DNA of 64,000 bases from Methanobacteriota archaeon (GTDB taxonomy: Archaea; Thermoplasmatota; Thermoplasmata; SG8-5; JAGLSY01), in the NCBI GenBank assembly GCA_020697715.1, contig JAEHCO010000001.1, forward strand, positions 160,001 through 224,000, written 5' to 3'. The position numbers and the translations under genes are program-made. This document shows positions 26,009 to 60,597 of this stretch, in pieces (the first letter of the stretch is position 1; each line of letters begins with the position of its first letter). Below the pieces are notes generated by a model. It saw nothing but the letters and a program-made list of their open reading frames with translations. It did no database searches and had not been told where the DNA came from.

Positions 26009-26030
26009 TATCGGACAAAAGTCTATTTCA

Positions 26031-27985: not shown

Positions 27986-27986
27986 A

Positions 27987-28937: not shown

Positions 28938-29697
28938 CTATTTCAGCCTCCAATTCCAGTAGGTTCATAAGAGTGTCCCCATTCAATAAATCTTTGTATG
29001 TGGGATTAACTTGGAATAATTTGTCCAGATTATCGATCGAATCCCTTATGTATTTGGAAAATGCCTTGACATAATCTCCTCCAGCTTCCGACCAATGAAG
29101 AGGATGAAATACAATCTGAACCTGTCTTTTCTTTGCCTCTTCTATAAAGATGAAGGGATCCTTATCACGAAAGTTCATACATGAATCACTCAGGTAAGCG
29201 ACATCACTGAATACCTCATCTGAATAGGCATTGTTATAGCCTTCGAACATTGGAAATTTACCAGTTACCGAAGGATTGTGGAGGCTGATGGAAACTATCT
29301 TGCGTCCGATCACATTCTCAAGGAATGAACATTCTTCATCCACATGATGTGCCAGTTCTTCCTGGGTCACATTTCCATATATGGTCGGATCAAAATGAAG
29401 ACCGATCTCAAATCCTTTTTTTGACATCGCGATCAGGTATTCTCTATTTTTTGAAGATGCGGCATTGTAGAACTGGCAGGTTGCCATAATAAAGAATGTG
29501 GATCTTATTCCAATTTCTTCTTCTACCAATGCCATTTCATAAGCAAGTGAGATATCGAAGTCAACATCATGTCTGAGTATGACACATGATCCATCTTTTC
29601 TTCCTTTCAGTGTGGTAACAGACGATATCTCCTTGGCTCTAGCCATTAAAGCTCTGAAATAGTCATAGGTAAATGGTTTAGGATCATCACTCATCAT
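28930..29697 (-). CDS. Polysaccharide deacetylase-like protein
   Basis: LRHDVD, STFF, EIGLHF, SLHNP, YLSDS, HPLHW. Confidence 0.75.
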   Translation of the reverse strand: MMSDDPKPFTYDYFRALMARAKEISSVTTLKGRKDGSCVILRHDVDFDISLAYEMALVEEEIGIRSTFFIMATCQFYNAASSKNREYLIAMSKKGFEIGLHFDPTIYGNVTQEELAHHVDEECSFLENVIGRKIVSISLHNPSVTGKFPMFEGYNNAYSDEVFSDVAYLSDSCMNFRDKDPFIFIEEAKKRQVQIVFHPLHWSEAGGDYVKAFSKYIRDSIDNLDKLFQVNPTYKDLLNGDTLMNLLELEAEIDE

Positions 29698-30821: not shown

Positions 30822-30867
30822 AAAACCCCTAATCAATTATATGATAATTAGATTTCCCTCTAAATAT

Positions 30868-32037: not shown

Positions 32038-33335
32038 GCCACCTCCGAGATAGTGTAACGACGCTTGCCGGATTCTGGCCAGTCTATTTTATCCGGATAT
32101 TTTACATCGATATCGATATCATCGCCCAGGTATTCCCTCAAATACTTCAGAAGATACTGGATATCTGTATCTGTGAATTCCGATGTCCTTACTATGTCGA
32201 TCTCCAGCTTATCTATCTTTTTCTGGATTATTCTATATTCCTGTATGCCACTCACATCCTTGAAAAGATGAGGGAAGAATTCCCCGGGGAGTCTTTGACC
32301 AGAAGGCGTGACTATGAAGTCATGAACTCTTCCATCGATAGAGCTCATCATGGAGAGGGAGCGTCCGCAACCACATTTTTCCATTTTGGGTGTTCCCATA
32401 TCACCTATGGAGTATCGCAGCCAAGGCATGACCTGATTGTGCAGGTCTGTGATGATGATATTCCCACTCTCTCCAGGAGATACTGGCTCCCCATCTTTAA
32501 GAAACTCAACAATTGAATTCTCATCGGAAATATGATATCCTTGAAGATGCTCACATTCATGGGCGATCAATGATGTCTCACGGCTACCATAGCCATCATA
32601 AACCCTGCATCCGAAAGTGTCTTCTATCTTCTTTCGCTGAAAATCATACAGGTTCTCGGCAGTTGTGATGATCGCTTGCGGCTCGATGCCTTTGATATTA
32701 TTATCACTGACATATTTTGCGAAAACATACATCGCTCCTGAGAACGATCGTAGGATATTCGGTTTGAATTGAATGATCTGACGAGCATACTGGCTCATGT
32801 CCTCATCTGACATCTTGAAGGCATTGAGCATTAGACGACGTAGGAGAGAATGTCGTATCTTCGTACTCATCTTTTCCAGTTGTTCAATTTCGAAACTAGC
32901 TCCCCATAGATCTACCATACGATCCCTGAAATTATAATGTGCCCAGTTCCACCCTCGATACCGAGCACCATTGGCCCATGCCCACATTTCCCGCTGGACA
33001 TAAAATTTTAAAGGCTCACCTGTTGAGCCACCTGTTTGGGACGGCATGGCCCTGGATCTCAGGTTCCTGGCTAACATCTTGTCCAAATTCTGACGTAGAT
33101 CATCCTTGGTCATTATAGGCAGTTTATGAAGATCTTCCTTGGTCTTGATATCGTCAGGCTTAAGATCTAGTCGCCTGAACATATCATGATAATATGGCAC
33201 GTTCTCGTAGGAGTTCTTTATCAACGCTCTCAGCTTGAGATTTTGGTATCGTTCGATATCCTCTCTGGGCCAATATTGGCTTTTCATCAAGAAATTATGT
33301 GTCTTGCGGACAGTTAAAGCATCGGAAATGATCAT
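32034..33335 (-). CDS. Phenylacetate-CoA ligase-like (CapK-type) adenylate-forming enzyme
   Basis: VPYY, TGGSTGEP, YGSRE, MPWLRYSIGD, GRVHD, SGKRR. Confidence 0.88.
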   Translation of the reverse strand: MIISDALTVRKTHNFLMKSQYWPREDIERYQNLKLRALIKNSYENVPYYHDMFRRLDLKPDDIKTKEDLHKLPIMTKDDLRQNLDKMLARNLRSRAMPSQTGGSTGEPLKFYVQREMWAWANGARYRGWNWAHYNFRDRMVDLWGASFEIEQLEKMSTKIRHSLLRRLMLNAFKMSDEDMSQYARQIIQFKPNILRSFSGAMYVFAKYVSDNNIKGIEPQAIITTAENLYDFQRKKIEDTFGCRVYDGYGSRETSLIAHECEHLQGYHISDENSIVEFLKDGEPVSPGESGNIIITDLHNQVMPWLRYSIGDMGTPKMEKCGCGRSLSMMSSIDGRVHDFIVTPSGQRLPGEFFPHLFKDVSGIQEYRIIQKKIDKLEIDIVRTSEFTDTDIQYLLKYLREYLGDDIDIDVKYPDKIDWPESGKRRYTISEVA

Positions 33336-34243
33336 TTAACGATCACCCACAGATGAACTTCATACTCGGTTTCAACCCCATCTATGTACAATTGCCAGAC
33401 TACCTTATGCTTACCTGGGTCGGGTATGTTGAATGTAATGATATCTTCAAATATCCCATCATGATCCAGTGTTATATCCCTTTCAAAACTATTATCACCT
33501 GTGAAACTAAAAGTTTGATCCCAATTGCTACCATCATTGATAGTGGTTGCATTTTCAATTCCAATAATTACCTTATAATTGACTTCCTCATATTCATGAC
33601 ACCTGATACCAACAATAATTGAGGCTGTGCCATTGGTAGTCATGTTCAATGTATAATTCTCGGCGGTGCCATTTGAGTCCAGTATATATAATTGTGAATA
33701 TCTCTCTCCATCACTTGGTGTCATTAATACATAGGCAAGAACACAGCCAGATAATACTAATACCACAGAAATCATAATAACAAATAATTTCTCGGTCTTA
33801 TCTGATGGTAATAATGTCTGGGGCATTGGTAGAGCTATGTGGTACCTTTCTTGCTCCGTCAGCTGTTGCCGTCGCATGTATGCGAATATTGTTAATATTA
33901 TCTGAATGATAAAAAGGCCTGCTAATGTGGAAGATAGTGTGATCCCATTTGAAGTGAAATTCAATATGAGGCCAATTACCGAAACCACTACTATACTAAG
34001 ACCGAAGCTCAAGGCAATTCTTTCCATATTGCCAATTCCATCTTTACCTGGCCAGAGAATTGCTACGAGAGCGTATCCTGGTATGAACACAAGCAAAAAA
34101 GTCCCAAAGATCACTCTGATAAAATTACCATCAGGCAAAACTATGGCTACAATTACCGCCACAACGGACCACAATAAAAGAAGTATTAGATCCAATGGAT
34201 GTTTTTCACTCTCTACGGTTTCATTTGAATTAGGAGATCTCAT
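33332..34243 (-). CDS. DUF1616-like membrane protein
   Basis: FIPGYAL, ERIALSFGLS, YSQLYIL, C-terminal VHLWV. Confidence 0.8.
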   Translation of the reverse strand: MRSPNSNETVESEKHPLDLILLLLWSVVAVIVAIVLPDGNFIRVIFGTFLLVFIPGYALVAILWPGKDGIGNMERIALSFGLSIVVVSVIGLILNFTSNGITLSSTLAGLFIIQIILTIFAYMRRQQLTEQERYHIALPMPQTLLPSDKTEKLFVIMISVVLVLSGCVLAYVLMTPSDGERYSQLYILDSNGTAENYTLNMTTNGTASIIVGIRCHEYEEVNYKVIIGIENATTINDGSNWDQTFSFTGDNSFERDITLDHDGIFEDIITFNIPDPGKHKVVWQLYIDGVETEYEVHLWVIVK

Positions 34244-34911
34244 CAGTCATCCCCCCCTAAAACCCCTCTCTTGAGATAATACTTATGACCTATATAGCTC
34301 TCCACAGCCGGATCATGAGATGCGATAATGACAGTGGCACCAAATTCCTTATTGGCCTTTTTGAAGGCTTCCATCACGATATCACAATTATCCATGTCAA
34401 GAGATGCAGTGGGCTCATCTGCAAGTAGGACCGTTGGATTATTGGCCAGAGCTCTGGCAACTGCCACTCTTTGTCTTTCACCACCACTTAATTCATTTGG
34501 ATATTTACTTGAATATTCATACAGGTCGAATGTCTTCAGAAGCTCCCTCACCTTCCAATCACCATCATGCCATTTTGCTATTTTCATTGGCAGTAGGACA
34601 TTCTCAAAGACTGTAAGATCATTTATAAGGTTATGAGCCTGGAAGACAATGCCGATCTTGTGAAGTCTGATACTAGCTAATTCCTTATCAGACAATTCTC
34701 CAGTATTGTATCCATTTAGGAATATTTGACCTCTTGAAGGAGTGTCTATGCAGCCTATCAAGTTAAGTAATGTTGTCTTTCCACTTCCAGACCTACCTTT
34801 GATCAATACCATATCATTTGACTGGATGGTCATATTGATCCCTTTAAGGATCTCTTTACGATCATCATAGGATTTCCATACATCCTTCAGTACTATGTCC
34901 ATTTGCTTCAT
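34243..34911 (-). CDS. ABC transporter ATP-binding protein (LolD/MacB type)
   Basis: GRSGSGKT, LSGGERQR, LADEPT, SHD. Confidence 0.93.
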   Translation of the reverse strand: MKQMDIVLKDVWKSYDDRKEILKGINMTIQSNDMVLIKGRSGSGKTTLLNLIGCIDTPSRGQIFLNGYNTGELSDKELASIRLHKIGIVFQAHNLINDLTVFENVLLPMKIAKWHDGDWKVRELLKTFDLYEYSSKYPNELSGGERQRVAVARALANNPTVLLADEPTASLDMDNCDIVMEAFKKANKEFGATVIIASHDPAVESYIGHKYYLKRGVLGGDD

Positions 34912-35001: not shown

Positions 35002-35706
35002 TCATTCAGATATTACGGGAGTGGTGACAAAGGCATTCTTTCTTCTTATTAGCCTCAGCCAGCTATGTTCATGTTTGGTGCGTCTCATCTTGACACATCG
35101 TATTCGAAGCTGAACATCTGTTTCACCAACGTCATGTAATCGCAGGTAAATGATGCCATCTGCTAGAAAATCCTCATTATTGGCCACCATCAGCTCACTA
35201 CCATGTGTGATCTCCGATATCAGGAACACTGTTGAATCCATTTCTCTTAAAAATCTTATGAAATGAAAGAGATCGACCCTTGGTGAATTGAGCTCGGCCA
35301 AAGAATAAAGAGCTGCTAGAGAATCTACCACGATGAAATCAAAATCCTCCACCTCTGCCCTTTTCTGTATGTATTTACTCAATATACCGAGCCAATTCCG
35401 TCCATGTTCCTCTTCCTGATGACCCATCCTTATCTTTCCCACATCGACCATGTATAATTCCAGGTCGTCCAGACCGGTCATTCCAAGATCCTGCATGGCT
35501 CCTTTAAGACCTTCATACCCTTCTTCGAGAGAAAGATACAGGCCGCGTTTATGTTCTCTCTTCGCATTCTCGTACATTATGCTGAAAGTTAGGGATGTCT
35601 TCATGGTGCCTGGTGTTCCACATATCAATACAACATGCCCTTTGGGAATCCCTCCACCCAGGTTCTCATCGAAGCCCTCAATGTAAGTTTTGATCTTTTC
35701 TACCAT
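35002..35706 (-). CDS. Single-domain KaiC/RAD55-like ATPase
   Basis: GGGIPKG, GTPGTMKT, SLEE, VVDSL, DFLADGII, KMRRT. Confidence 0.9.
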   Translation of the reverse strand: MVEKIKTYIEGFDENLGGGIPKGHVVLICGTPGTMKTSLTFSIMYENAKREHKRGLYLSLEEGYEGLKGAMQDLGMTGLDDLELYMVDVGKIRMGHQEEEHGRNWLGILSKYIQKRAEVEDFDFIVVDSLAALYSLAELNSPRVDLFHFIRFLREMDSTVFLISEITHGSELMVANNEDFLADGIIYLRLHDVGETDVQLRIRCVKMRRTKHEHSWLRLIRRKNAFVTTPVISE

Positions 35707-36469: not shown

Positions 36470-37831
36470 TCAACTTCTCAATGTTCGAGTTATCGCAAAT
36501 TCTTTATTTCGCAATGCGACAGGATGATATGGATTGATCTTCAATACTTCTTCATAACACTGTATGGCCTCGTCGAACTTCCCTTCTGATTGAAGAAGAG
36601 CTGCTTTATTAAGCCAGACCCCGATATCCATACTATCGAGCTTCAGGGCCTTATCATAGCATTCCAAGGCATCTTTATTATTGCCAAGTACCCTGTAAGT
36701 GACACCAAGATTGGACCATATACCCGGATCCTTCGGACTTATCTCCAAGGCCTTGCGATACCAAATTATTGCCTCATCGGTCTTGCCCAATGTTCTGAGC
36801 AAAATACCTTTATTGGACATCAGATCTGCATCACTTGGATTAAGTTCAAGTGATTTGTCATAACACAATAAAGCCTCTCCCAGCAATCCAAGACGATGCA
36901 GTGACACGCCCTTATTGAACCAAGCCCAGGAATCATTGGGGTTCTCTTCTAAAGCCATATCAAAACATTCGACAGCCTGTTCGCTTTTGCCCATCTTTTC
37001 CAGAGCGACCCCTCTATTGAACCAAGAATCATCATCTGGCCTTGTATTGAAATCATATGCTGATATTTCATCTTTGGTTAGATCAGACATGTGCTTCTTG
37101 GTCTCAGATGATTTCTTAACAGGGGGTTCCTCGACCTTTGGTGGCTTTTCTGGTTCTTCCTCTATGGCTTCTTCATGTGCAGGCTCTTCAGTATTCTTTG
37201 TCTTGAGCTTTCCGGATATTTTAGCTTCATGCCTTGAAGGAATTACCTTTTCATCTGATTCCAATGATGGTTTCACATGATCTGCTTTGAATTCATAGCC
37301 ACAAATGTCACATGTGTCTACATCTGTGTGCCACATGGCACCGCATTCAGGACATTCTAACTTATTTCCGGTCAACATTATATTTCGCACATCCTTTATC
37401 TGGTCGAACTTTCTGGCCAAAGCACTGGATATCTCCTCATTTATGGAACCTGGATTCAAAGGCACTATGAGGCTGGAACCATTCTTAGCCGCATATTTAC
37501 CTAGATCTGATAGGAACTCTTCCGTAACATCATATCCGTTCTCCAATATTAGATATTCGACCTCGTCTATCATCACAATGCATTCTTTATGGTCCTTCAT
37601 GAACTTCTTCAAGCTCTTTAGAACCTCTCCAGTGAGTACTTTGGGATCTGCGGGGTCTGAAAGCCAAATGAATTCCGCCTTCTTAAGGTTATACTCTTTC
37701 TTCAGCTTGCGCGGAAGTTTGGTGGTCAGGCATATACATGGGATCCCATGTTTATCGAATTCTGCAAAAAGCTCAAAAGTAAAATGTGTTTGTGTTTCAT
37801 ATATCAGATGATTCTTACCTCTTTCTATCAT
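36470..37831 (-). CDS. DUF835-like domain + double Zn-ribbon + TPR protein
   Basis: CLTTKLP..IWLS..IDEVEYLILENG; CPEC..CDIC; about 5 TPRs (WFNKG, WSNLG). Confidence 0.8.
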   Translation of the reverse strand: MIERGKNHLIYETQTHFTFELFAEFDKHGIPCICLTTKLPRKLKKEYNLKKAEFIWLSDPADPKVLTGEVLKSLKKFMKDHKECIVMIDEVEYLILENGYDVTEEFLSDLGKYAAKNGSSLIVPLNPGSINEEISSALARKFDQIKDVRNIMLTGNKLECPECGAMWHTDVDTCDICGYEFKADHVKPSLESDEKVIPSRHEAKISGKLKTKNTEEPAHEEAIEEEPEKPPKVEEPPVKKSSETKKHMSDLTKDEISAYDFNTRPDDDSWFNRGVALEKMGKSEQAVECFDMALEENPNDSWAWFNKGVSLHRLGLLGEALLCYDKSLELNPSDADLMSNKGILLRTLGKTDEAIIWYRKALEISPKDPGIWSNLGVTYRVLGNNKDALECYDKALKLDSMDIGVWLNKAALLQSEGKFDEAIQCYEEVLKINPYHPVALRNKEFAITRTLRS

Positions 37832-37853
37832 TCTACCTTCCCCATATTATGTT

Positions 37854-39662
37854 CTACGTCAATCCTCTCCTTTCCAGTTCTTTCAAAGCAATGTCCCTGT
37901 TCTTGGCTGCAAGCCTTCTCCCAGGGTCTATCTGCATCGCTTTGTCATAACATTCTATTGCTTCCTTCAGGAGACCCATACTACCAAGGACAACACCTTT
38001 ATTGCTCCAGACCCCCGCATCCCTTGGATTGATCTCAATGGCCTTATCATAAGCTTCTATGGCCTCTTTTATCCTTCCTACACTTCTCAGAGCAATACCC
38101 TTATTGCTCCAGATACTTGAATCGCCTGGGTTTACAGCAAGGCCTTTATTGTAAGAGTCAATGGCTTCATCAACACGACCCAATGTCCTCAATGCAATTC
38201 CTCTATTTCCCCACACTTCGCTATCATTTGGATTGATCTGGGTTACAAGGTCATAACATTCAAGAGCCAGTTCTATCCTTCCTAACATCTGAAGGACAAC
38301 ACCTTTATTGAACAAAGATTCGGCATGAGATGGGTCTATGGCCAAGGCGCTGTCATAATATTTTATGGCATCTTCAAACTTCCTCTGCCTTCCAGCAGCG
38401 ATCCCCATATTGAATTTTTCACTGACCTGAGACTTCTCGGTTGGTGAAAGACGTCTTTTAGCAAGCCTTCCTTTGATATGCTTCTCCATTGCATCGTTTA
38501 TGTCCATTGAAAGAGAATCCAAGTTCTTACGGGAACCTCTAAGCTTGCTAACATCTCCATCATAATCACCTAGCACGTTCTTGTACTGGCCTTCTACTCC
38601 ATCAATATTTTTTAGCATTGCTTTCTTTATGTCGCCCATTACCTTGTGCAGGTATTCCTCAGCCTTGCCCGAAAATATCAGAGCGACAGATACGTATTCG
38701 CCGTCTGCAATGATAATTATGTATCCTTTCACATCTATTCTACTAAATTCAGATTTTTCACCTGTCGCGAAGGAATTGTTGATGAAATCCAAAATCGCCT
38801 GTAACATACCTCCTATGAGATCCGGATCTATAAGATCCTGGTCTCTCCAGGTTTTCCTCTGAATGAGGGTGCCAGTGCTCCTGTGAATTAGATATATGTC
38901 CTCTATTTCCAGATCAGGGATGTCATCTTCTATTTCCACTCCCTGGGTAGCTAGTGGATCAGGTGGGGCATCTATTCTCAGATCCTGAGGCGTGGACATT
39001 GCTGGCTGTGATTGCGCAGCTGGCGTGTATGAAGTTGGAGAGGGGGTGTATGATGATGGCTCGGGAGAGGGGGCTGGCGCCGCCTGGGGTTGTGCGGCAA
39101 CAGGCTGGGGGGCCGGCTCCGGCTCTGGTTTGCCCGCGATCTCATTTATCGTTCCAACCATATCAAAGTCCCTGGAAAGGGTTGTGACCGTCTCTTTATT
39201 GAAGGAATTTGGATTTATGGCGATCATGATGGTCCCTCCATTCATGGATGCCAGATCATTAGTACGCTTGATGAATTTCCTTACCTTGTCATATTCATTC
39301 TCCAGAGTCAGATAGGCAAATCCGTCAAGCAGAAGTATGGACTCTTCATGTGCCTTCAAGAATTTATTGATCACTCTTGTTATCTCGAAGTCCAGTCTTG
39401 TAGGGACTAGAGTATCGGGCTCATTGCTGGAATCCGATAGCCAGTATATCTTTGCCTCTTCAGAAAGACCGTATATTTTTTTCAATTTTTTCGGGTAGAG
39501 GGTTGTTATGCATAGACCTGGAACTCCCGATCTGACCACTTCATCAAATAGTCTAAAGGTCTCGTCTGTCTTGTCCTCATAAATAAGATAGTTCAATCCT
39601 GTGTCAATAGCCGTTTGCCTCACCCCTGAGTCTATTATAGGGATGTTATATGGCTTTACCAT
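37854..39662 (-). CDS. DUF835-like domain + Pro/Ala linker + longin-like domain + TPR protein
   Basis: GLCITTLYP..YWLS..LLDGFAYLTLEN; IEDIYLIH..DPDLIGGMLQAI..F; about 6 TPRs. Confidence 0.8.
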   Translation of the reverse strand: MVKPYNIPIIDSGVRQTAIDTGLNYLIYEDKTDETFRLFDEVVRSGVPGLCITTLYPKKLKKIYGLSEEAKIYWLSDSSNEPDTLVPTRLDFEITRVINKFLKAHEESILLLDGFAYLTLENEYDKVRKFIKRTNDLASMNGGTIMIAINPNSFNKETVTTLSRDFDMVGTINEIAGKPEPEPAPQPVAAQPQAAPAPSPEPSSYTPSPTSYTPAAQSQPAMSTPQDLRIDAPPDPLATQGVEIEDDIPDLEIEDIYLIHRSTGTLIQRKTWRDQDLIDPDLIGGMLQAILDFINNSFATGEKSEFSRIDVKGYIIIIADGEYVSVALIFSGKAEEYLHKVMGDIKKAMLKNIDGVEGQYKNVLGDYDGDVSKLRGSRKNLDSLSMDINDAMEKHIKGRLAKRRLSPTEKSQVSEKFNMGIAAGRQRKFEDAIKYYDSALAIDPSHAESLFNKGVVLQMLGRIELALECYDLVTQINPNDSEVWGNRGIALRTLGRVDEAIDSYNKGLAVNPGDSSIWSNKGIALRSVGRIKEAIEAYDKAIEINPRDAGVWSNKGVVLGSMGLLKEAIECYDKAMQIDPGRRLAAKNRDIALKELERRGLT

Positions 39663-39832
39663 TAAATACCTTTTTGGAGAATAATGTACTATAAATTATA
39701 ATTTCGATGTTACATGATGTGATCGAGAATTATCATAAATGATTAAAAAATCTTAATTTATGTATGTTATATGCTTCCATCATGGGTAAACAATAAATAA
39801 TACATTGTATAATCAGTAGCCAGGAGCTAAAG

Positions 39833-41146
39833 TTGATAATAATGAACAATCAACCAAAACCTAGAACTAAATACATTGTTGCTACATTGACATTGGTAAC
39901 TTTCATCATTCTAATATCAGGTATATCAAATTCGGCTGTTTCGGCCGAGCAGAGAAGGTCTATAACTTCTCAAGAAAGATATGAGACCTTGCCCTTCAGT
40001 CCTGGTAGTCTGATCATCCCGATGGATGAGAAACAGAATGATAGATTACAGGCCTTTGGCATGCTACACGCGCTCCTAAGAAATGAGACTATTTGTTATA
40101 GGCTCATTGGCCCTCCAACTACTTTCATAAAGACTATGACATATTCAAATGGGAGTAATTATTCTGGCGGCCCTATAATTTTGGTGGAGTATAATATTAC
40201 TTTATTGGCTGGTATCATAACTCAATTCTCCGAGGTCACCATACATGAGGTGTCTGAGACATTCATAGGGCAAAAGGTCTATAAGATCCAGGAACCTACA
40301 AAGATATTGATAATAGGGAGAGAAGGCACTGACTATCAAGAAAGCCTGTCTGCCGAATTATTGAATAATATGAAGATACCGTATAAGGTGAAACAGATCT
40401 GGCACATCTATCCCGATTCAACAGATTTCTTGGACAATGACCTTATAATCATCGAAGATCCCGGCCAGAACGGAGAAATGAGGACTTGGAAGATGGAGAT
40501 GATAAGAACAGCTGTGGCCAGTGGCAGGAACTTTATATTCATTGGCAAGGCCATCAAGGATCTAGTGGACATATTTCCAATGTGTGTGAGCACTTATGCT
40601 GTGAACAGTGAGGTGAATTATCAGGCCACATTTGACAATATCGGTGAATCACCATCTCAGTATCATGGATCTGAGATCATCAATGTGACCACAAGTAAAT
40701 TTATAGCCACAACGCCCGTGAACCCTGATCTGGACCTCAAGCCCATGCTTTATGCAGATGGATATGATGCCCAGATACTATTCGCTTCCTATTTCAGATA
40801 TGGGGATGGTACTGTGGAATTATTCTCATTCGATCCAGAGAAACAGAATGGAGAAATGAGAGAAATGGCTTCCATATTCCTTGGCAATAGGTTCGTGCAA
40901 GCTCCACCAGCTCCATTGAAACCACCAGTTCCTTTGGCACCATCCGCAATGCCTATGCCATCACCGGCCTTACCGCCGCCGCCGCCACCGCCGCCGCCAC
41001 CACCACCAAGCGTGCCAATGGCTACAGCGGCTATCCCCGCACAGTACCTATTCGCAGGATTTGCAGGTCTTGCTTTAGGTGATAGATTGAAGGGCAAGAC
41101 CAAAACAAAAACTGCCGTAAGACAGAAGATCAAGATAAGTACATGA
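39833..41146 (+). CDS. Secreted/surface protein with poly-proline stalk
   Basis: Signal peptide, GSLIIPMD..AFG..YSGGP motif, Pro12 run, hydrophobic then basic C-terminus. Confidence 0.7.
   Translation: MIIMNNQPKPRTKYIVATLTLVTFIILISGISNSAVSAEQRRSITSQERYETLPFSPGSLIIPMDEKQNDRLQAFGMLHALLRNETICYRLIGPPTTFIKTMTYSNGSNYSGGPIILVEYNITLLAGIITQFSEVTIHEVSETFIGQKVYKIQEPTKILIIGREGTDYQESLSAELLNNMKIPYKVKQIWHIYPDSTDFLDNDLIIIEDPGQNGEMRTWKMEMIRTAVASGRNFIFIGKAIKDLVDIFPMCVSTYAVNSEVNYQATFDNIGESPSQYHGSEIINVTTSKFIATTPVNPDLDLKPMLYADGYDAQILFASYFRYGDGTVELFSFDPEKQNGEMREMASIFLGNRFVQAPPAPLKPPVPLAPSAMPMPSPALPPPPPPPPPPPPSVPMATAAIPAQYLFAGFAGLALGDRLKGKTKTKTAVRQKIKIST
40973..41008 (+). repeat. (CCG/CCA)12 run encoding 12 consecutive prolines
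   Basis: Read directly from the sequence. Confidence 0.9.
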
Positions 41147-41155
41147 GGGTTGAAT

Positions 41156-42385
41156 ATGAAAACAATTAGAATGCTAGGATTTGCAATCGTGATATCGCTC
41201 CTATTCACTATGACAATGGACATCGTATGTTGTCAGGATGAAGTAGAAGTTCTGGATGAGGGAACAAGACAGGGATTCATAGGATGGCAACATGTTGATT
41301 TTGATGAGAATTTGGAGGTGGACTATGCACCAATTCACCCCAAACCTACGGATCCAGTTACCATAACCCTCAGATCTCTTGAGCCAGAGGTTACCATAAA
41401 CACGGCTTATATGGATGTCACGGTCACTTATCCTCAAGGTGGTGTCGCCACTGGTGGAAGGACATTCCTGAGGATCAGTGAAACGGAGATGAAGTGCATG
41501 ATAGGCCCATTTGATTACAATGGGACCACGGTGACATTCTTCATCAATGCCTATGATTATAATAATGTCCAGATGCAATCTTCAGTATACACGATCAATG
41601 TGGTGGGAGAAGAGAGAACTGGCGGATGGCAAAGATTGACCTTTGATGGGAATATCAATCTTACACAAACTCCCGTATCTCCAAATGCCAGTGAACCTGT
41701 CAATATAATTGTCGAATCCCGTGATGGAGTTCCTATAGAAGGGGGGAATCTGTATTTCGTCTACAAGCCAATAGATGGCGATATTGAGTCTGGTGGATGG
41801 GCTTTCGATAGAGTGAACATGACGACATTGGAAAGGGAGATACCAGGTAATTTCCACGATGCAGGTGCAAATATATCATACTGGGTGGTCGTATGGGATG
41901 AATACAGTAATCTGACAAAGTCAGAGCCCATGAATTACTCCATACCGGGAGTTGTTATGTTCAATTACCCGTTCATATATACAGTAAGAGAAGATAATGG
42001 AGATATCGACAATTCGAAATGGTATCCGGATATGATAATATTCATGTCCTTTGCCGTGATGGCAATAATGATAGTCCCACTTTACACCTTCATTTACATC
42101 AAAGAGGTGAAGATAAGAAAGAAGAAGGGTGATCTGATCATAAAAGAAAGTGAGAAAGAGATCCTGGGTGGGATGAAAGAAGATGATGATCTGGAAGAAG
42201 ATCATCAAATATTGGATGGAACTACTGATCAATACAATCTGGAAGTTGAAGGAAATGGCGAAGCCATGGACGGAATGATGGAAATTGAAGATACAGTAGA
42301 GATGGAAATAGAGGATCCAGTGGAGGACGAGATACTGGATGAGACTGAGGATCAAAAACCCAAGAAAGGAAGGTGGTTCAAATGA
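41156..42385 (+). CDS. Single-pass membrane protein: two Ig-like repeats, TM, acidic cytoplasmic tail
   Basis: Signal peptide; internal duplication (FDENL..P.P.P.DPVTI vs FDGNI..PVSP..EPVNI); TM, KKK, D/E-rich tail. Confidence 0.7.
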   Translation: MKTIRMLGFAIVISLLFTMTMDIVCCQDEVEVLDEGTRQGFIGWQHVDFDENLEVDYAPIHPKPTDPVTITLRSLEPEVTINTAYMDVTVTYPQGGVATGGRTFLRISETEMKCMIGPFDYNGTTVTFFINAYDYNNVQMQSSVYTINVVGEERTGGWQRLTFDGNINLTQTPVSPNASEPVNIIVESRDGVPIEGGNLYFVYKPIDGDIESGGWAFDRVNMTTLEREIPGNFHDAGANISYWVVVWDEYSNLTKSEPMNYSIPGVVMFNYPFIYTVREDNGDIDNSKWYPDMIIFMSFAVMAIMIVPLYTFIYIKEVKIRKKKGDLIIKESEKEILGGMKEDDDLEEDHQILDGTTDQYNLEVEGNGEAMDGMMEIEDTVEMEIEDPVEDEILDETEDQKPKKGRWFK

Positions 42386-45042
42386 ACACAAGCATGGCTA
42401 ATCCCGGAGCATATGGGGTGATCAGTAATCTAAGAAAAATAGCCTCACGAGAATCAAAAGAGCCTAAAATGGTCATGGTTTTGTTATTCTTCATCCTGGG
42501 ATTGTTCGGATGTACATGGATACCTTTCCTCCCACTGTGGATGTCCATACTTGTGGCATTCGTCATAGCTGCGATATCATACGGCTTTCCCTACCTTTCA
42601 ATGATAGTGCTCAGCATCTTCGTGATAGGGGCTGCCGGATACCAGACACCGGAATTCGGACTTTTCATGCTGCTGTTTTCCATGGTCGTGCTGGTAATAG
42701 CGATGTTCGATTGGAAATTGGGATACTTGGTATTTCTATCAATATTCCTTTCCAGGTTCGGTCTTTCACTTATGGTCCCGATAGTGGCAGCTACACTATT
42801 TCCTTTATTATTATCAATATCCACTATCGTGATTGCGGGAGTGTTCCTCACCTTCATGGTCACATGCGGGAATATGACGATCGCCGGTATGCTGGTAGGC
42901 CCTGTGCATGATACCAGCTTCATTGTATTTTACAAACCAGAGATCGTTGATTTCATACCTTCGGACCTCGGTGTCGCCCTTGGATACTTACAGGATGCGG
43001 ATATGAGCATGATGGGAAATATCATAGCTGATAATCTGGGACTCACCATCATGCCGATAATTCAATTGATCCTCTGGGCATTCGTGGCCTTCCTCGTTTA
43101 CATGCTTTTCAACAGGAAGAAGATACAGGGAAGGTTCAATATCGCATTGACCCTCGTACCTTCAATCACCGCGATGATGATATTCATTAATTCCATAAAT
43201 CTCATGCTCACACCCACACCTGATGCTATCAACATGGGATATATGATCTTACCCATGGTCATAGCTTCTATTCTCATTGGAAGAGTTGGGCATGAATTAT
43301 ATTTCATATACTTCACGAATTTGGAAGTGGAGACCAATGTTGGAACCCGGATATCGGATATGGATAATCTAGGGGAGAGCAGCTTCCAATTGATAGGGGG
43401 TCTGGATGATGTTAAAGAGGACATCAAAGAATCCATAATGATGCCGCTTCTGATGAATGAGGTCACCGCCAAATATGGGGTGGAAGCACCTCATGGTATC
43501 CTTCTATTTGGACCTCCTGGCTGTGGAAAGACAATGCTGATGAAGGCATTGGCCAATGAGCTTCGAGTGGAGATGATCACCATAAAATGTTCCGATATCA
43601 TGTCAAAATGGTATGGTGAGAGTGAGAATAAACTAGCGGACTTATTCGAAACTGCAAAGGAGAGAAGACCATGTATCATCTTCTTTGATGACATGGAAGC
43701 GATGGCCAAGCACAGGGATCTTTATGCTGGAGATGATGTCACACCAAGGCTTCTCAGTATCATGCTGGCAGAGCTTGATGGTATGGACAATGCCGCAGGC
43801 ATCATACTTGTGGGTACCACCAATAAGCCAGAGTTGATAGATCCAGCTCTTCTAAGGCCAGGAAGGTTCGACAAGATCATATACGTACCTCCGCCATCTG
43901 TCGAAGAGAGGGTGGAGATCCTCAAGGTCCATCTTCGTAACAGACCTCTGGAAGATGATATCGACCTTCGCCTCGCAGCATTGAAATCAGAAAGGTTTTC
44001 AGGAGCTGACCTTTCTAATCTTGCCAAAGAGGCCGCTGTTCTCGCAATGAGGAGATCTGTAGAAAGTGGGGAAGATTCGTATATCACTGGTGATGATCTT
44101 GTGGAAGTGGCTACGACAGTCAAGCCCAGTATTAATCTGGCCATGCTGAAAGAATATGAGCTTCTCAAGATGGATTATGAAAGGAAGATGCATCATAGCG
44201 AGAGGGATGAGAAGTGGCAGAAGATCAAATGGGAAGATGTTGCAGGCGCGGATAGAACAAAGAAGGATATCCGTGGGTATATTGACATCCTGACCAAAGA
44301 GCCCAAGATATTGGAAGATTTCCGCCTGAAAACAGGACGAGGGATGTTATTGTTCGGACCTCCTGGTTGCGGAAAGAGCCATATTATGAAGGCCGCGGCC
44401 AATGAGCTGAAGATACCTTTACAGATCATAAGCGCACCCGAGATGATTGGATCTGGTTTGGGAACCATGCCAGTTAATCAAATATTCTTCCGAGCGAGAG
44501 AGAACACACCTTCAATTCTGATGATAGAGAACATCGATGCCCTGGGATCAAGGGAATCATTCGAGAATCCAGAGGCTTTCAATGTGATATCCCAGATACT
44601 TGACGAGGTGGACAATGTCGAGGCCAGGGAGCATGTGCTTATAGTGGCGACCACCAATGATCCGGACAGCCTTCACCCCAGCTTGATGAGGCCAGGCAGG
44701 TTCGATAAGATATTCCTGGTACCACCTCCAAGCTCCAAGGCCAGAAAAGAGACCTTTAAAATATATCTGAAAAACATACCAACAGCACCCGATGTCGATA
44801 ATGAGCTACTGGACATACTGGCAATGAAGACCAGCGGATACAGCAATGCGGATATAGCCGCCATAGTCGATGAAGCAAAGCTTACAGCGGTCGTCAACAA
44901 TGATCCTGGTGGCGAAGTATGTGAAAGGGCTGTGTGCAAGGACCATCTATTGAATGCGCTGAAGATGGTGGAGACATCCATTACCAAGGAATATCTGGAA
45001 TCGACAAAGGCATTCATGGAGCGCTATAAGGTGAGGAAGTAA
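42382..45042 (+). CDS. Polytopic membrane protein fused to tandem Cdc48/p97-like AAA+ domains
   Basis: About 9-10 N-terminal TM; GPPGCGKT and GPPGCGKS; SKWYGESE; two RPGRFD; ATGA overlap with the upstream gene. Confidence 0.9.
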   Translation: MNTSMANPGAYGVISNLRKIASRESKEPKMVMVLLFFILGLFGCTWIPFLPLWMSILVAFVIAAISYGFPYLSMIVLSIFVIGAAGYQTPEFGLFMLLFSMVVLVIAMFDWKLGYLVFLSIFLSRFGLSLMVPIVAATLFPLLLSISTIVIAGVFLTFMVTCGNMTIAGMLVGPVHDTSFIVFYKPEIVDFIPSDLGVALGYLQDADMSMMGNIIADNLGLTIMPIIQLILWAFVAFLVYMLFNRKKIQGRFNIALTLVPSITAMMIFINSINLMLTPTPDAINMGYMILPMVIASILIGRVGHELYFIYFTNLEVETNVGTRISDMDNLGESSFQLIGGLDDVKEDIKESIMMPLLMNEVTAKYGVEAPHGILLFGPPGCGKTMLMKALANELRVEMITIKCSDIMSKWYGESENKLADLFETAKERRPCIIFFDDMEAMAKHRDLYAGDDVTPRLLSIMLAELDGMDNAAGIILVGTTNKPELIDPALLRPGRFDKIIYVPPPSVEERVEILKVHLRNRPLEDDIDLRLAALKSERFSGADLSNLAKEAAVLAMRRSVESGEDSYITGDDLVEVATTVKPSINLAMLKEYELLKMDYERKMHHSERDEKWQKIKWEDVAGADRTKKDIRGYIDILTKEPKILEDFRLKTGRGMLLFGPPGCGKSHIMKAAANELKIPLQIISAPEMIGSGLGTMPVNQIFFRARENTPSILMIENIDALGSRESFENPEAFNVISQILDEVDNVEAREHVLIVATTNDPDSLHPSLMRPGRFDKIFLVPPPSSKARKETFKIYLKNIPTAPDVDNELLDILAMKTSGYSNADIAAIVDEAKLTAVVNNDPGGEVCERAVCKDHLLNALKMVETSITKEYLESTKAFMERYKVRK

Positions 45043-45043
45043 G

Positions 45044-45382
45044 ATGGAAACGATCTCCTGGATACTGATCGTATCTATCGTGGTATTCATCCTCCTCGGG
45101 GTCTGGGGTATCAAATTCCCCAGGGCGGGAAAGGATTGGAACAAAAGCCGATCCGAGACCATGTCCATGATATTCAGTATGTTGATCTTCCTGGCCATGT
45201 TCCTCATGTTGTGGTATCTGATGGGAGTCATTGAATGGCCTGATGCCATGGATCTTATTGTCTGGATCTCCGCCATAACGTTCTTTGTCCTGATAATACT
45301 GGCAATTGTCCTTCCCAAAGGTACAAGACTGAGGCTTGGTAAGAAAGATAATAAAATTCAGGCTGCGGACGATGATGACTGA
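45044..45382 (+). CDS. Small 3-TM membrane protein
   Basis: Starts 1 nt after the AAA stop; three hydrophobic helices. Confidence 0.7.
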   Translation: METISWILIVSIVVFILLGVWGIKFPRAGKDWNKSRSETMSMIFSMLIFLAMFLMLWYLMGVIEWPDAMDLIVWISAITFFVLIILAIVLPKGTRLRLGKKDNKIQAADDDD

Positions 45383-45514: not shown

Positions 45515-46774
45515 TCACCTATGATGAAGATTCTTTGCCGCTATCACACTCAATCCATTCTTGGTCAAAGCATCTGCCGTCCTATTGATAGCCAGGTGCT
45601 TGTCCATGTAGTTCTGTGTGAGGTCTTCCATCATCCCGTTCTTTATGACATCGGCCTTGGGTAGGAAGTATTCCAGTATGTCAGATGGGTGGCTTCTTGA
45701 CTCCTCGATGTCCATGTCCCCGCCTTCGTGCTTGGCGCTGATATTCGGAACGGTCTTGGCAATATGCATCAATTCATCACGGCGATCGTATGGCTGGCGC
45801 ACGATGCTCTTGTATGATTCGAATATGTGATGTTCGAACCTGACCACATCGTCCAAGCTCATGGCCTTCCTGATCTCCGCACTTATCTCGATGGTCTCAT
45901 TGTTCACTGAATTGGAGAAGTTGAAACCGATCAGTGATGTTGTGCCGTCTCCCCTGCTGAACAATTTGGCACCCATCAGGGTCCAGAATATGGAATATGG
46001 ATTGTCATTACCCATGAATACCGATATTTTAAATTCATTGTTCACACCTAGCTTGTGAAGCATATAGGCCAGCATCACAGTTCCTGGGTTGACATTGAGC
46101 ACTTGATTGACACCGTAATTTGTGTAATAATACAGGAACTCGTCTATCCATTTGAGTCCGTGATCATTTGGCTGGCCCACACCACCGAAATAACCAGTGA
46201 TGGTCTCCGGACCACCAAGATGTACATTGGATCCGTCTGTTCCTTTTGTGTCCAGGGTCTCGCACACACTGGCTCCGACGATCTTCATGGCTGCCTGAAC
46301 TGCCAGAAGGTCATCATCGTCCTCCTGTTCCTTCATCATTCGAACGCGGATGAAACGACCAGGCATCAATTCCTGGTTGGCTATTGCCTGTCTCGCTTGC
46401 TTCATGAAGAAAGGAAAGTACTGAAGAGCACTGATCTCCAGAGTTACGGCGATGTCATCATCGAACTCCAGGCCAGTGGCATTATCGCCCACTATCTTCT
46501 TCTTGTAATCCTGGATGCTGATGAAGGCTCCATTGTCCCTCTGCTCTATCAGCCACTTCAGATCTGCCAGGTATGGTGAGTTCTTGGCTTCCAGTTGGCC
46601 GAGGAGATTTTCCAGCTTTCCAGCCTCCTCCGCCTTTCTGTTTATCTCAGCCACTCCACCATACTTGTCAATGATAGCAAGTAGATCATTGACCAGCTTA
46701 TTATCTGGATCCATTAGAAAATCATTTACCTCATTCAATCTTTTATCGGATATCTTTAACAGTTCTCTGCTCAT
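45515..46774 (-). CDS. Uncharacterised soluble protein, enzyme-like
   Basis: 419 aa with GGAGG RBS; motif-like segments LDTKGTDGSNVHLGG, FEHH, KHEGG. Confidence 0.75.
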   Translation of the reverse strand: MSRELLKISDKRLNEVNDFLMDPDNKLVNDLLAIIDKYGGVAEINRKAEEAGKLENLLGQLEAKNSPYLADLKWLIEQRDNGAFISIQDYKKKIVGDNATGLEFDDDIAVTLEISALQYFPFFMKQARQAIANQELMPGRFIRVRMMKEQEDDDDLLAVQAAMKIVGASVCETLDTKGTDGSNVHLGGPETITGYFGGVGQPNDHGLKWIDEFLYYYTNYGVNQVLNVNPGTVMLAYMLHKLGVNNEFKISVFMGNDNPYSIFWTLMGAKLFSRGDGTTSLIGFNFSNSVNNETIEISAEIRKAMSLDDVVRFEHHIFESYKSIVRQPYDRRDELMHIAKTVPNISAKHEGGDMDIEESRSHPSDILEYFLPKADVIKNGMMEDLTQNYMDKHLAINRTADALTKNGLSVIAAKNLHHR

Positions 46775-51719: not shown

Positions 51720-54700
51720 TTACTGGGGCAGGGATGCTTTCCTCTTCCTGCGAACTATGCTGAATATGACCATTGGCATGAAGATGACGAATGCAAGTGC
51801 GCTGTATTCGGATATGATGATCACCATCGTACCAGATGCGAACATCACCCATGTTATTCCAGCATTGGCATTACTGCCTGCTGTGAAATGTGGCGCACCG
51901 ATCAGGACATCTATTTTATTATCTCCATCCAGGTCGCCAACCTTACAGACAGACCATCCAAAGTGTGAACTGGCATTGGCAGAATAATTTACATAATCCG
52001 CATTGGCGGCGCTTATCGCACTAGCCATAGTGGCAGAGCCATTGAAGATATACACCGCTCCTTTTCCACTACTGTAATACGGTGCTCCGACAATGACATC
52101 GTCGTATGTGTCACCATTGAAGTCATCCAAGCCATGAACGGAGTAGCCGAACTTATCACCGGAGGTTTCGCCTGTGAGAGTGACGGCTATCTTGCAATAC
52201 TTGTAGCTTATAGTTATTGAGGAAAGGACTGGAGTATAGCAAACCTGTGTTGTGCTCATCACTATCTTGTATCGGAGATCGTCGCCCTGGGCTTCCCCGC
52301 CTGTGAAAGAATACTCAATTCCATCAGAAACAGCGGTGTAAGTGGTTCCACCATCACGTGACACGGAGACCGTCATGCTGGCTCCGTTCGTCACCGCTGT
52401 CCAATCCGCGGTCATTGATGTTATCTGACCACTGACCGCCGTTGTGGAAGATTCATAGGTTCCTGGTGTGTTGTATTTATACACATTCACATCATCAATC
52501 CAGACATCTGACATCCCTGCTGTTCCAGAAAGGAAGGTTATGGCACTCATAGAGTCCACTGTAGCGACATTGGCCATAAGGGCATCCGTGTATTCCAGTG
52601 TACCGTTGATGAACATATCGAACTGATCATTGTCACAATCTGCTACAACGGTTATAGTGTACCAGCAACCTGTAGCATAGGGCATTATTACCTCGGTACT
52701 GTCTCCGCCCTGGAAGTCCCTAACACAGATATCACCATCAATGAACTGCATCTGGAAAGCAAAGGTCGCGCCATCGAATCCAGCCATGGAAAAGTAGTCA
52801 TCCGCGGTCTGAGATTCGAAATATATCTTGAACTCCATACAGACAAAACCTGTAGCATCCGTGAAAGTGTCATCTATCTGGATGTTCTGGTCCACACTGT
52901 TCGTATCGTTAAAGTTAAGACCATTAGAGGCCGAGACCGAGTAAGTGTCATCAACAGCCACATCACACCCAGTACCTTCTGCCGTTATGGTCCACCCAGT
53001 TGGATCATTCCCCACGGTCTCTCCGGTATCAAAATTATCTTCATATGTTATGGTCTTATCGAGCATCAGGTCTCCACCGGAGGAGGCGTATATGTTTGTG
53101 TTAGGATTTGCCGATGCCAGACTGCTTCCAGTAGCCGTGAAATCAGACTGAGATGTATCTGTCCTAGAGCCAGTTCCATCTATGTCCCCTCCCTTGTATA
53201 TGTAGGCATTGCCATTTGAAGTTCCAGGAGCTCCAACTATAACATCATCATTGCCACTATTATCTACATTTCCAGCACTGGCCACGCTCCAGCCAAATTT
53301 ACTCTGAACAGCGGCCCCGGAAACATGGAGGTACATGTGATCGATATAAACAGTATCAAGGTTGGAATCTCCAGACGTGGCATCCACCACCCCAATATAT
53401 AGAGTTCCAGTATAGGCATCCAGGGTGGCGTCCGAGTATGTCTGATATACATCATCATCACTTGTCTTGGTCATATCCAGCATCTTGGTCCATGTATCTA
53501 CAGCTCCTGTTCCAGCAGTGGAATAATAAAATTCGAAATTCTCACTATCCAGATCTGTCCTGTACCCATCAAGATAGAAGGTGGAATCTGTCCCAGCAGT
53601 AACGGACATGGTCCATTTATGTTCTAATCTAGTAGAAGCGATCGATACGGTGGTGTTCACACACATGAAATCGATTTCTAAAGTGTCTGCCTGACTATTG
53701 GCAGAAGTATTGTCAATAGCGCCGACATAGAACGCTCCTCCGGTGAAGCCATCTGCATCCAGATCGAAGGTGTAAGTTGTCTGGGCCTGGGCGTCGACAG
53801 AGAACATGTAAGTCCATGCGCTAGTTCCAACATCTCCAGAATTTGTTGTGGCATAATAGAACATAAATTCATCATTTGGACTGCCACCTGAATCCCAGCC
53901 AGCACGTAGTTGGAACTCATACTGATCGGCAGATGCGGGTGTTGATGTGAAGGTCCATTTATGTTCAAGGCTGTAATGTGGCACAGCTGTACTGTCCATG
54001 GTCACATTCACATCATCCAGCCATACTGCTTCACCACTTCGCATTGATGCAGCACGCCACTGGATCTGGAAAGCACTATGCAAATATTGCGAGTCGGTTA
54101 TAGTCTCTTGATAATTGTACCATGTATCCTCGGTAGTTTGCAGGGTTGCCAAATCTTCTATGAGGTCCCAGGTTCCGGTATTGTCATAGTAATAGAGGGT
54201 GTAATCATTGGGATCGGCATCATCTTCGCGCCACCAAAAGTCAACATCAATGCTTGTTGCAGATGAAGTATCCATTGATGGGGATTGAAGAGTGCCAGAT
54301 AAGCCAGGATTTGCACCATCGAAATCTGCAGAATATGAGCCCGTATGGAACTGATCTGTTTCTGGATTCCATACTGTTCCTGCGGCTTCAGTCCAATCGG
54401 TGGGCCAAGAGGTGCTCTCAAAGCTCTCTGTGGGAATCAGAGTAGTAGTACTGCTGCCCCCAGTGATCTGGTACTCTACAATGTCCTGGGTTGTTCCATC
54501 CTGGTCTGCCGTATCAGTGTAATCATTTACATTTGAGCCAGAATCTGATTCATTATATGTTTCTGAAGTAGCAAAATCCTCATCATAGACAGCTGCAGAA
54601 CTTACCTCAGTTATGCTCTGATAGCCATCATTCTGCGTCTGAGTATTGGTGTGGGTGCCGGAGACCGTGCCAGTGTCTGCAACATCAGCCCCTGTGGTGT

Positions 54701-60395: not shown

Positions 60396-60597
60396 GGTCT
60401 CCCTGAATCCCTTGCATAGGTGATCGTGGAAATGTGACGCCTGTTTATTTATCGGTCTATTAGGCGTGCGCAATATTGTTTAATTTACCATATACATTAA
60501 AACATAATGCATGGGGATATAATAAGGTTCTATGCAATATATTACATCGACTATTTTAATTGTTAATATTTATATAACAAAAAAGTTTTAACAATAC

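Follow-up and report, generated by a model that had tools for sequence, protein, structure and literature searches.

A tandem AAA ATPase with a ten-helix membrane domain and dedicated surface partners in Thermoplasmata archaea: a candidate cell-envelope machine

Organization of the locus

The window analyzed here is a 64,000-nucleotide stretch from an archaeal genome placed in the Thermoplasmata (contig JAEHCO010000001.1, positions 160,001 to 224,000), and our subject is a set of four tightly packed open reading frames (ORFs), g1 to g4, on its + strand at 39833-45382, the third of which encodes an ATPase of 886 amino acids (aa) with about ten membrane helices followed by two AAA modules (D1 and D2). 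The ORF listing and the printed sequence both confirm the close coupling described in the original prediction: a 3-nt gap lies between g1 and g2, the start of g3 forms a 4-nt ATGA overlap with the stop codon of g2, and a single nucleotide separates g3 from g4. Two of the genes have more than one candidate start codon. A GTG at 42373 would give g3 a length of 889 aa as against the 886 aa from the ATG at 42382, which is the start that produces the ATGA overlap; and g1 begins with TTG, with an ATG present 9 nt inward. Because the junctions are short, and because the operon is flanked by a divergent gene upstream (− strand, ending at 39662) and a convergent gene downstream (− strand, 45515-46774), the four genes can be treated as one unit, whose promoter presumably lies in the intergenic region 39663..39832, between g1 and the upstream DUF835-TPR gene. 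The same gene order was found again in distant genomes, so the arrangement is not a matter of chance. The source genome is a 2.12-Mb assembly of 34 contigs (93.8% complete), whose close relatives are labelled as Methanomassiliicoccales or Methanobacteriota metagenome-assembled genomes.

The first gene, g1 (39833..41146, + strand, 437 aa), encodes a secreted protein built of head, stalk and anchor: a hydrophobic N-terminal signal or anchor at about residues 12-38, a conserved head at about residues 40-365, a run of exactly 12 prolines (residues 381-392, codons 40973..41008), and a C-terminal anchor module (41009..41143) in which a short hydrophobic segment rich in Gly and Ala is followed by a tail rich in Lys and Arg. 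Its neighbor g2 (41150..42385, + strand, 411 aa) has a signal peptide, two repeats (about residues 45-150 and 158-262), one transmembrane (TM) segment at 291-320 and an acidic cytoplasmic tail of about 90 aa. Within g3, the membrane domain comprises residues 1-330 (42382..43371, + strand) and is followed by D1 (43372..44211) and D2 (44212..45042), and g4 (45044..45382, + strand) encodes a small protein of 112 aa with three hydrophobic segments. The original prediction, which had listed a poly-Pro surface protein, a single-pass repeat protein with an acidic tail, an ATPase with 9-10 TM helices ahead of D1-D2, and a 3-TM protein, thus described the parts of this operon correctly.

The membrane domain of g3

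Residues 1-330 of g3 are strongly hydrophobic and have no match in Pfam, which recognizes two PF00004 AAA modules with their lids in the remainder of the protein. An AlphaFold2 (AF2) model of the membrane domain (pLDDT 88.2, pTM 0.86) predicts a bundle of about ten membrane helices preceded by an amphipathic N-terminal helix, with a beta-hairpin loop at 163-192 and a linker helix at 308-326 leading into D1. This linker, about 20 residues long and bearing an invariant Gly and an invariant Arg, joins the last membrane helix to the first AAA module. Because the TM segment of g2 runs from outside to inside in those forms where it is fused to the ATPase (see below), the membrane domain would both begin and end in the cytoplasm, and the distribution of Lys and Arg is consistent with this topology: the N-terminus, the 244-253 loop and the C-terminus fall inside, and the hairpin loop outside.

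An alignment of 41 membrane domains contains eight invariant residues (P48, F49, P51, Q88, G127, G169, G321 and R323), and no Cys, His, Ser, Asp or Glu is invariant across it, which argues against a hydrolase role. Searches for relatives gave little. Pfam at E ≤ 10 returned scattered single matches to the 41 domains and nothing consistent, a profile search of the PDB returned 0 matches, and Foldseek, run with the model against 350,542 PDB chains, gave a best E of 0.5 with TM-scores of at most 0.22. A fold search independent of Foldseek (48,161 chains) placed S-components of ECF transporters in 11 of its 14 top rows. The best match was 5kbw_A (Z 8.5, root-mean-square deviation 4.4, 146 aligned of 170), and 3p5n_B reached Z 8.3; the S-component matches cover model residues 105-317, i.e., helices 5-10, with 137-163 residues aligned at Z 6.9-8.5, in a range (below about 13 for helical bundles) where Z may reflect a common arrangement only. 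We therefore treat this weak likeness as a lead only. No Derlin, rhomboid, exosortase or insertase is among the matches listed by either fold search, so that the Derlin- or rhomboid-like fold suggested earlier found no echo in the best 50 rows of either, a result that falls short of exclusion. The membrane domain thus has no Pfam family, no solved relative in sequence and no clear relative in fold; a match to a characterized family, one of the grounds for refutation given in the original prediction, was not seen.

The AAA modules of g3

The two AAA modules differ in how well they have kept the features of a motor. Among 40 aligned members of the family, the Walker A lysine of D1 (GPPGCGKT in the window) and its aromatic pore loop, (K/R)WYG, are each invariant (40/40); the second pore loop is conserved, the Arg fingers are kept, and Walker B reads DE in 24 rows and DD in 16, including that of the window. 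The Walker A lysine of D2 is likewise present in all 40 rows and its Arg fingers are largely kept, yet its P-loop sequence is degenerate in several rows, its pore loop is without the aromatic motif of the Cdc48 type, and its Walker B is DE in only 16 of the 40, DD in 2 and variable in the rest (EN in the window). All 16 rows with DE in D2 have DE in D1 as well. Judged by these motifs, D1 appears to be the conserved motor, and D2 has the look of a degenerate ring. Beyond the lid of D2 only about six residues follow, the C-terminus being ...YKVRK, and hence the protein has neither a protease domain nor an HbYX motif, as had been noted from the letters alone; C-termini across the family are conserved in a ...Y(K/G)x R(K) pattern (...Y-x-x-R), which is not HbYX.

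If g3 were a Cdc48 whose N-domain had been exchanged for membrane helices, as originally proposed, its D1 should group with the D1 of Cdc48 and its D2 with the D2. CDC48 (TIGR01243) is indeed the best NCBIfam model for the whole protein, at 441.2 bits against a cut-off of 802.65, in an alignment restricted to profile positions 451-731 (the D2 part); PAN reaches 395 bits (cut-off 500) and FtsH (TIGR01241) 391 bits (cut-off 600), and CdvC is also among the best models. For single modules CDC48 again ranks first (261 and 188 bits), and the best solved relative of both is Thermoplasma VAT (399.7 and 287.1 bits; PDB 5vc7 and 5g4f). Cdc48 N-domain families are absent from the best 25 of 39 Pfam families for g3, as are MoxR models from the best 25 of 69 NCBIfam models for g3 and from the 10 listed for each module.

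To compare the modules, we inferred a maximum-likelihood phylogeny from 46 of them, each taken singly and all from a shared genome set, comprising D1 and D2 of 15 family members, D1 and D2 of 6 Cdc48 proteins and 4 PAN modules, with FtsH, Vps4 and MBA sequences left out. The D1 modules of the family form one clan (support 100/99) and the D2 modules another (100/100), and Cdc48-D1, Cdc48-D2 and PAN group together apart from both (100/98). Because both clans fall outside Cdc48 and PAN, g3 appears to represent a tandem-AAA subfamily of its own rather than a recent Cdc48 derivative, and this part of the original prediction has to be given up. The other AAA matches in the source genome are one ordinary Cdc48 (738 aa) and one PAN-like protein (407 aa); FtsH is not among them.

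Distribution and conservation of the operon

If the joining of membrane domain and ATPase were an artefact, it would not be expected to recur. Of 201 genomes sampled from the class, 47 have the fusion (29 of the 141 of high quality), as do 36 of 301 genomes of the phylum, other classes included, with one family contributing 19 of its 24 genomes. The proteins fall into 34 clusters, which span 823-1522 aa and without exception contain AAA domains. Among 1.84 billion representative proteins, the membrane domain occurs in 28 clusters at 50% identity, most of them long proteins; none of these clusters contains a clearly complete protein lacking the ATPase, six being short or of unchecked architecture. 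In about half of the 28, the membrane domain lies at about residue 410, behind an ectodomain resembling that of g2. The fusion is therefore real and old, which disposes of the artefact that the original prediction had named as a ground for refutation. Because its distribution is patchy, the gene does not have a housekeeping role, and in these searches the operon family was met only in archaea of the Thermoplasmata group.

To score the partners we used 40 fetched loci and profiles built from the window proteins. Every one of the 35 loci in which 1.8 kb or more precedes the ATPase gene has an ectodomain of the g2 type, and the five loci lacking it have less than 350 nt there; fusion to the ATPase is seen in 9 loci and a separate gene in 26, of which 12 have two copies. 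Among the 38 loci that extend downstream, 28 have a g4-like gene next in the same orientation, and the 10 misses belong to one divergent subfamily. The head of g1 is found in 14 of 40 loci. Its profile matches 22 of the 201 class genomes, every one of which is among the 47 ATPase-positive genomes, with 0 matches in 154 negatives. By these counts the partner genes are co-conserved, and all three grounds for refutation set out in the original prediction have thus been decided in its favor.

Partner proteins

The 14 orthologues of g1 align with a mean column identity of 54%, and the parts of the protein have not been equally constrained: the proline run, the Gly/Ala-rich hydrophobic stretch and the basic tail are nearly unchanged, and the head varies more. 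The run of 12 prolines is kept in 13 of the 14, being interrupted in the remaining one (locus L048), which has 8 consecutive prolines. Neither Pfam, searched with all 14 members at E ≤ 1, nor a PDB profile search, whose best E of 0.024 fell on the proline run, assigns the head to a family. The top lead for g1 in the Atlas, and a lead only, was a DUF4350 cluster (score 0.85).

Where the head of the anchored protein is not g1-like, it is a vWA domain (PF00092) together with a further domain. The anchor module of g1 is homologous to the C-terminus of these vWA-headed neighbors of the ATPase (hhalign probability 96.9%, E 2e-10, 33 columns), and for this reason the anchor appears to be the constant part of these proteins and the head the exchangeable one. 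Overall, a protein with polyproline and tail is present in 26 of 40 fetched loci, and one more was found behind masked bases. Such anchor proteins number one per genome in four genomes tested, and two in the window genome and two others of its genus. We considered whether the anchor might be a widely used sorting signal and rejected this, since one or two carriers per genome point to a dedicated partner rather than to a general signal. A search for the anchor module in a set of 5.8 billion proteins returned 3 matches from 64 candidates, all of them g1 orthologues, within the limited reach of its word index.

The source genome holds a paralogue of g1, g1b (G000:C11:625516-626877; L075:7517-8875), which is 57% identical to it and shares both its anchor and its 12-proline run. 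This second gene is 420 kb distant from the operon and is flanked by genes for two SBP_bac_5 solute-binding proteins, each about 1,000 aa long, that also have Ig-like domains, and the genome with both g1 and g1b has only one membrane ATPase of the g3 family. In one family, g1-type heads occur inside open frames of 1,550-1,700 aa situated away from the ATPase (G002:C15, G002:C5 and G029:C1:3021258-3022166), so the head is also a module of giant surface proteins.

The two internal repeats of g2, about 100 aa each, share 28% identity (E 2e-11). They may be Ig-like; they match nothing in Pfam, and the best E in a PDB profile search was 0.33. The long acidic tail of g2 is peculiar to the clade of the window. 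What g1, g2 and the partners in other lineages have in common is that they are single-pass proteins with conserved cytoplasmic tails. Some operons also include giant Ig-repeat proteins (Big_7/Big_13; 1,450-1,750 aa), again single-pass, with charged cytoplasmic tails of 170-200 aa.

Additional domains are attached to the machinery in a few loci. At L047, L050 and L071, all of one family, the fused ATPase extends past D2 into a proline run and then a SAP domain (PF02037, 25-29 bits against a cut-off of 23.9), and the giant Ig protein of L049 ends in a domain like HhH or RNA_pol_A_CTD (38.5 bits). Both extensions are modules of the DNA-binding type on the cytoplasmic side of an envelope machine.

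Neighboring genes

Divergent from the operon, at 36470-39662 on the − strand, lie two adjacent paralogues with DUF835 and TPR repeats, one of 453 aa and a second of 602 aa that has a linker rich in Pro and Ala, which are kept beside the operon in the closest relatives only. The convergent gene at 45515-46774 (− strand) encodes a protein of 419 aa without a Pfam family, found at 96%, 72% and 65% identity in three related genomes, near the operon there too. A giant ORF of 2,917 aa at 51723-60473 (− strand) begins with about 725 residues of TPR repeats, HHH_5 (50.5 bits) and an acidic region, passes through a TM segment at about 732-752, and continues for about 2,100 residues with FG-GAP repeats of the integrin-alpha type to a C-terminal TM segment and basic tail. 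Similar giant surface proteins, with HhH in their cytoplasmic tails, stand beside the ATPase in other lineages. At 19326-34911 there is a glycan-synthesis cluster with epimerases/dehydratases, GT2 and GT4 glycosyltransferases, a flippase-type Polysacc_synt protein, a DegT aminotransferase, and hexapeptide and GNAT transferases, at the end of which are a DUF1616 (PF07760) membrane protein and an ABC ATPase. Two KaiC-family ATPase genes are found at 35005-35706 and 61319-62239, both on the − strand (122 and 128 bits).

Discussion

The architecture of g3, its motifs, its fusions with the g2-like ectodomain, the co-occurrence of its partners and a membrane domain without a known family are the observations from which an interpretation must start. 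Taken together, the g2-g3 fusion, the strict co-occurrence of g1 with the ATPase, the translational coupling of the genes, a D1 seated below the membrane and the cytoplasmic tails of the partners suggest one membrane complex with a motor that acts on those tails. Our preferred reading, to which we give a probability of roughly 0.45, is accordingly that the operon encodes a dedicated dislocase or force-coupling machine of the cell envelope, acting on the cytoplasmic tails of its single-pass partners. Action on membrane proteins was part of the original prediction, and this part of it fits the anatomy, because the D1 pore loop is invariant, D1 lies below the membrane domain and the partners have tails on the cytoplasmic side, whereas the identity of g3 as a Cdc48 with a swapped N-domain does not stand, and the likeness to ERAD (endoplasmic-reticulum-associated degradation) is one of analogy.

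On this reading, g3 would form a ring, presumably a hexamer as in classical AAA proteins, in which the ten-helix N-terminal domains build a large membrane collar with the D1 ring directly below. The g2 protein, fused to the collar in other lineages, would be bound to it here and contribute an outer crown of beta-rich domains, and g4 would be a small membrane subunit. The dedicated partner would be g1, with its head outside the cell, a rigid polyproline stalk, a membrane anchor and a basic tail that reaches the cytoplasm beside D1, where the aromatic pore loops of D1 could grip it; in other lineages it would be the vWA-headed anchor proteins that are targeted, and perhaps also the giant Ig-repeat proteins by way of their long charged tails. 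Pulling driven by ATP would then either extract the partner from the membrane (i.e., dislocation) or pass force to its extracellular head, with D2 serving as a degenerate ring of structural or regulatory function. Threading in Cdc48, FtsH and Msp1 enters from the N-terminal face of the ring. In g3 this face looks at the membrane, and pulling would thus be directed out of, or against, the membrane. A complex prediction combining the membrane domain, g4 and residues 355-437 of g1 scored 0.00 against a mark of 0.32, with its controls unfolded, and counts neither way on binding.

Several points weigh against this reading. The direction of threading, from the membrane face toward D2, is assumed by analogy with Cdc48, FtsH and Msp1. 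One or two anchor proteins per genome would fit a subunit as well as a substrate, and the partner set varies by lineage, g1-type heads being present in 14 of 40 loci and g4 undetected in 10 of 38. In that the Walker B motifs of the window clade depart from DE in both rings (DD in D1, EN in D2), hydrolysis may be slow or regulated. Finally, with neither a protease domain nor HbYX, the fate of an extracted chain is left unexplained.

A bolder version of the same idea, which we consider unlikely, is that the operon encodes a self-contained prokaryotic retro-translocon or winch, in which the AAA motor fused to a ring of about sixty membrane helices would grip the polyproline-stalked protein by its cytoplasmic tail and pull it, or cargo caught by its head or by the crown, through or against the membrane. 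If this were true, ATP hydrolysis within the cell would do mechanical work outside it, and in its working principle the system would be what Archaea have in place of ERAD dislocation, or of the inside-out force coupling of integrins, on a membrane fold unseen in solved structures.

Other accounts of the operon differ in what the ATPase is thought to do to its partners. A biogenesis or secretion complex would assemble or export the heads, the vWA proteins and the giant Ig-repeat adhesins, and would be a variant of the 'secretion or membrane remodeling complex' that Makarova, Galperin and Koonin (2015) predicted around arCOG01314 (DUF4350), with a membrane-embedded classical AAA protein replacing the MoxR ATPase as assembly chaperone. 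The predicted parts include a protein that has a signal peptide, a large flavodoxin-like domain outside the cell and one TM segment at its C-terminus; they also include an AAA+ ATPase, Ig-like membrane proteins and Ig+vWA proteins that are secreted, with DUF1616 also on the list of components (PMC5898192). Like parts are found here: PF00092 vWA and giant Big_7/Big_13 proteins belong to the operons of other lineages, a DUF1616 gene lies about 5.6 kb upstream in the window, and the top Atlas lead for g1 was the DUF4350 cluster mentioned above. However, when the g1 family was compared directly with 11 DUF4350 domains of related genomes, hhalign gave a probability of 0.5%; the ATPase is a classical AAA protein and not MoxR; and, with the membrane domain N-terminal to D1, threading of the usual kind would lead away from the membrane. 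The genome's own DUF4350 gene, moreover, is elsewhere. It encodes a DUF4350/GIFT-domain protein of 720 aa (G000:C29:15074-17233; L115:8074-10233) between giant subtilase-domain proteins (1,594 aa and more than 2,504 aa), and no MoxR or vWA gene was present in the 18 kb examined around it. We regard biogenesis as doubtful on balance. General quality control of membrane proteins, with g3 standing in for FtsH by drawing damaged membrane proteins out of the bilayer so that other proteases can degrade them, and its neighbors incidental or regulatory, would make sense of a membrane-anchored classical AAA protein with an intact D1 pore loop, a match to the FtsH model (albeit below its cut-off) and a genome whose AAA matches are limited to g3, Cdc48 and a PAN-like protein. 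Such a role sits badly with the patchy distribution of the family, which does not suit a housekeeping function, with partners that strictly co-occur and in some lineages are fused, and with the lack of a protease domain or of HbYX for docking to the proteasome, and we judge it decidedly unlikely.

A transporter or uptake device, in which the collar would bind and move a ligand or, more boldly, the AAA ring would power the inward pull of a captured extracellular polypeptide, seems to us very unlikely: the S-component rows of the fold search and the position of g1b between two solute-binding proteins point toward it, but the Z scores are of a size that may mean a common helical arrangement only, Foldseek was empty, there is no sequence signal, and we know of no transporter that runs on a classical AAA ring. 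Least credible, in our estimation, is a sorting system in which polyproline, anchor and basic tail would act as a C-terminal signal and be processed by the ten-helix domain, much as PEP-CTERM or PGF-CTERM is by exosortase or archaeosortase. The layout of g1 (signal peptide, domain, Pro-rich linker, hydrophobic stretch and basic tail) is that of sorted surface proteins, and its look-alikes in the Atlas include IPTL-CTERM and LPXTG-anchor clusters (0.80-0.83, leads only). Sorting systems usually have several clients, however, and here the module is carried by one or two proteins per genome, with no invariant Cys, His, Ser, Asp or Glu in the membrane domain.

The g3 operon looks like an undescribed machine of the cell envelope. 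To our knowledge, Archaea lack FtsH, and no archaeal machine is known to use a classical AAA motor for drawing proteins from the cytoplasmic membrane or across it. In the g3 family the motor is covalently joined to a large membrane domain and accompanied by its own small set of surface partners, so that the genome itself supplies candidates for the substrates or subunits and the system is directly testable. It could reveal both a new membrane fold and a new coupling of ATP hydrolysis to the cell surface. Members occur in several classes of Thermoplasmatota, uncultured lineages included, and a role in the envelope or in handling extracellular proteins would bear on the lifestyle of these organisms.

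Comparison with known systems

Archaeal AAA proteins have been sorted into six clusters, i.e., Vps4, MBA, Mm0854, AMA, PAN and CDC48 (PMC3493965). Among the titles and abstract openings surveyed, none deals with a Thermoplasmata AAA ATPase whose membrane domain is polytopic, and the supplementary tables of PMC5898192 or supplementary Fig. S1 of PMC3493965 might carry the family under an arCOG or cluster name. By its partners, the operon resembles the arCOG01314 system, in that both combine an anchored protein with a large extracellular alpha/beta head, Ig+vWA proteins, Ig-like membrane proteins and an AAA+ ATPase (PMC5898192). The ATPase there is of the soluble MoxR/GvpN type (COG0714), whereas g3 is a membrane-embedded classical tandem AAA protein; the head of g1 has no profile similarity to DUF4350; and the arCOG01314 system is itself a prediction only.

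Two comparisons concern the membrane domain taken alone. The S-components of ECF transporters (RibU, ThiT, FolT, BioY and PanT) have a six-helix arrangement similar to that modelled for residues 105-317; they differ in that the Z scores lie within the background of helical bundles, there is no sequence similarity, and g3 has four extra helices and its fusion to AAA modules. Exosortase and archaeosortase differ from g3 in their conserved catalytic Cys/Arg/His, no Cys or His being invariant in the membrane domain of g3, and in the number of clients, only one or two anchor carriers being present per genome here.

Other systems share the coupling of an AAA+ ring to the membrane. In PTEX, where HSP101 sits on the EXP2 pore, and in Bcs1, such a ring is coupled to the passage of proteins across a membrane. 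The pore of PTEX, however, is at the exit of D2, its direction is export and HSP101 is of the ClpB type, whereas in g3 it is the entrance of D1 that faces the membrane part; Bcs1, for its part, has a single ring and a single TM helix. The membrane-bound AAA proteins (MBA) of Sulfolobus, the subject of Serek-Heuberger et al. 2009, are, like g3, archaeal classical AAA proteins with N-terminal membrane helices. They reportedly have a single AAA domain and few TM helices and are said to be confined to Sulfolobales; compared by description only, g3 is set apart by its two AAA modules.

In its AAA part g3 is closest in plan to the type II classical AAA unfoldases Cdc48/p97/VAT, with which it shares tandem classical D1-D2 modules with their lids, the second region of homology and the Arg fingers. 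In place of the N-domain (double-psi barrel and beta-clam) of those proteins it has the ten-helix membrane domain, its active-looking ring is D1 with D2 degenerate, and it is without the C-terminal HbYX of Cdc48 and PAN. In the placing of its parts it is nearer to FtsH and to Msp1/ATAD1, where the membrane part is likewise N-terminal and an AAA ring with an aromatic pore loop lies under the membrane. FtsH combines a C-terminal M41 zinc protease with a single AAA ring and two TM helices, and Msp1 has one TM helix and one ring; by contrast, g3 has about ten TM helices, two rings, no protease and dedicated partners. Even so, the way in which FtsH and Msp1/ATAD1 pull on the cytoplasmic ends of membrane proteins provides the likeliest working analogy for g3.

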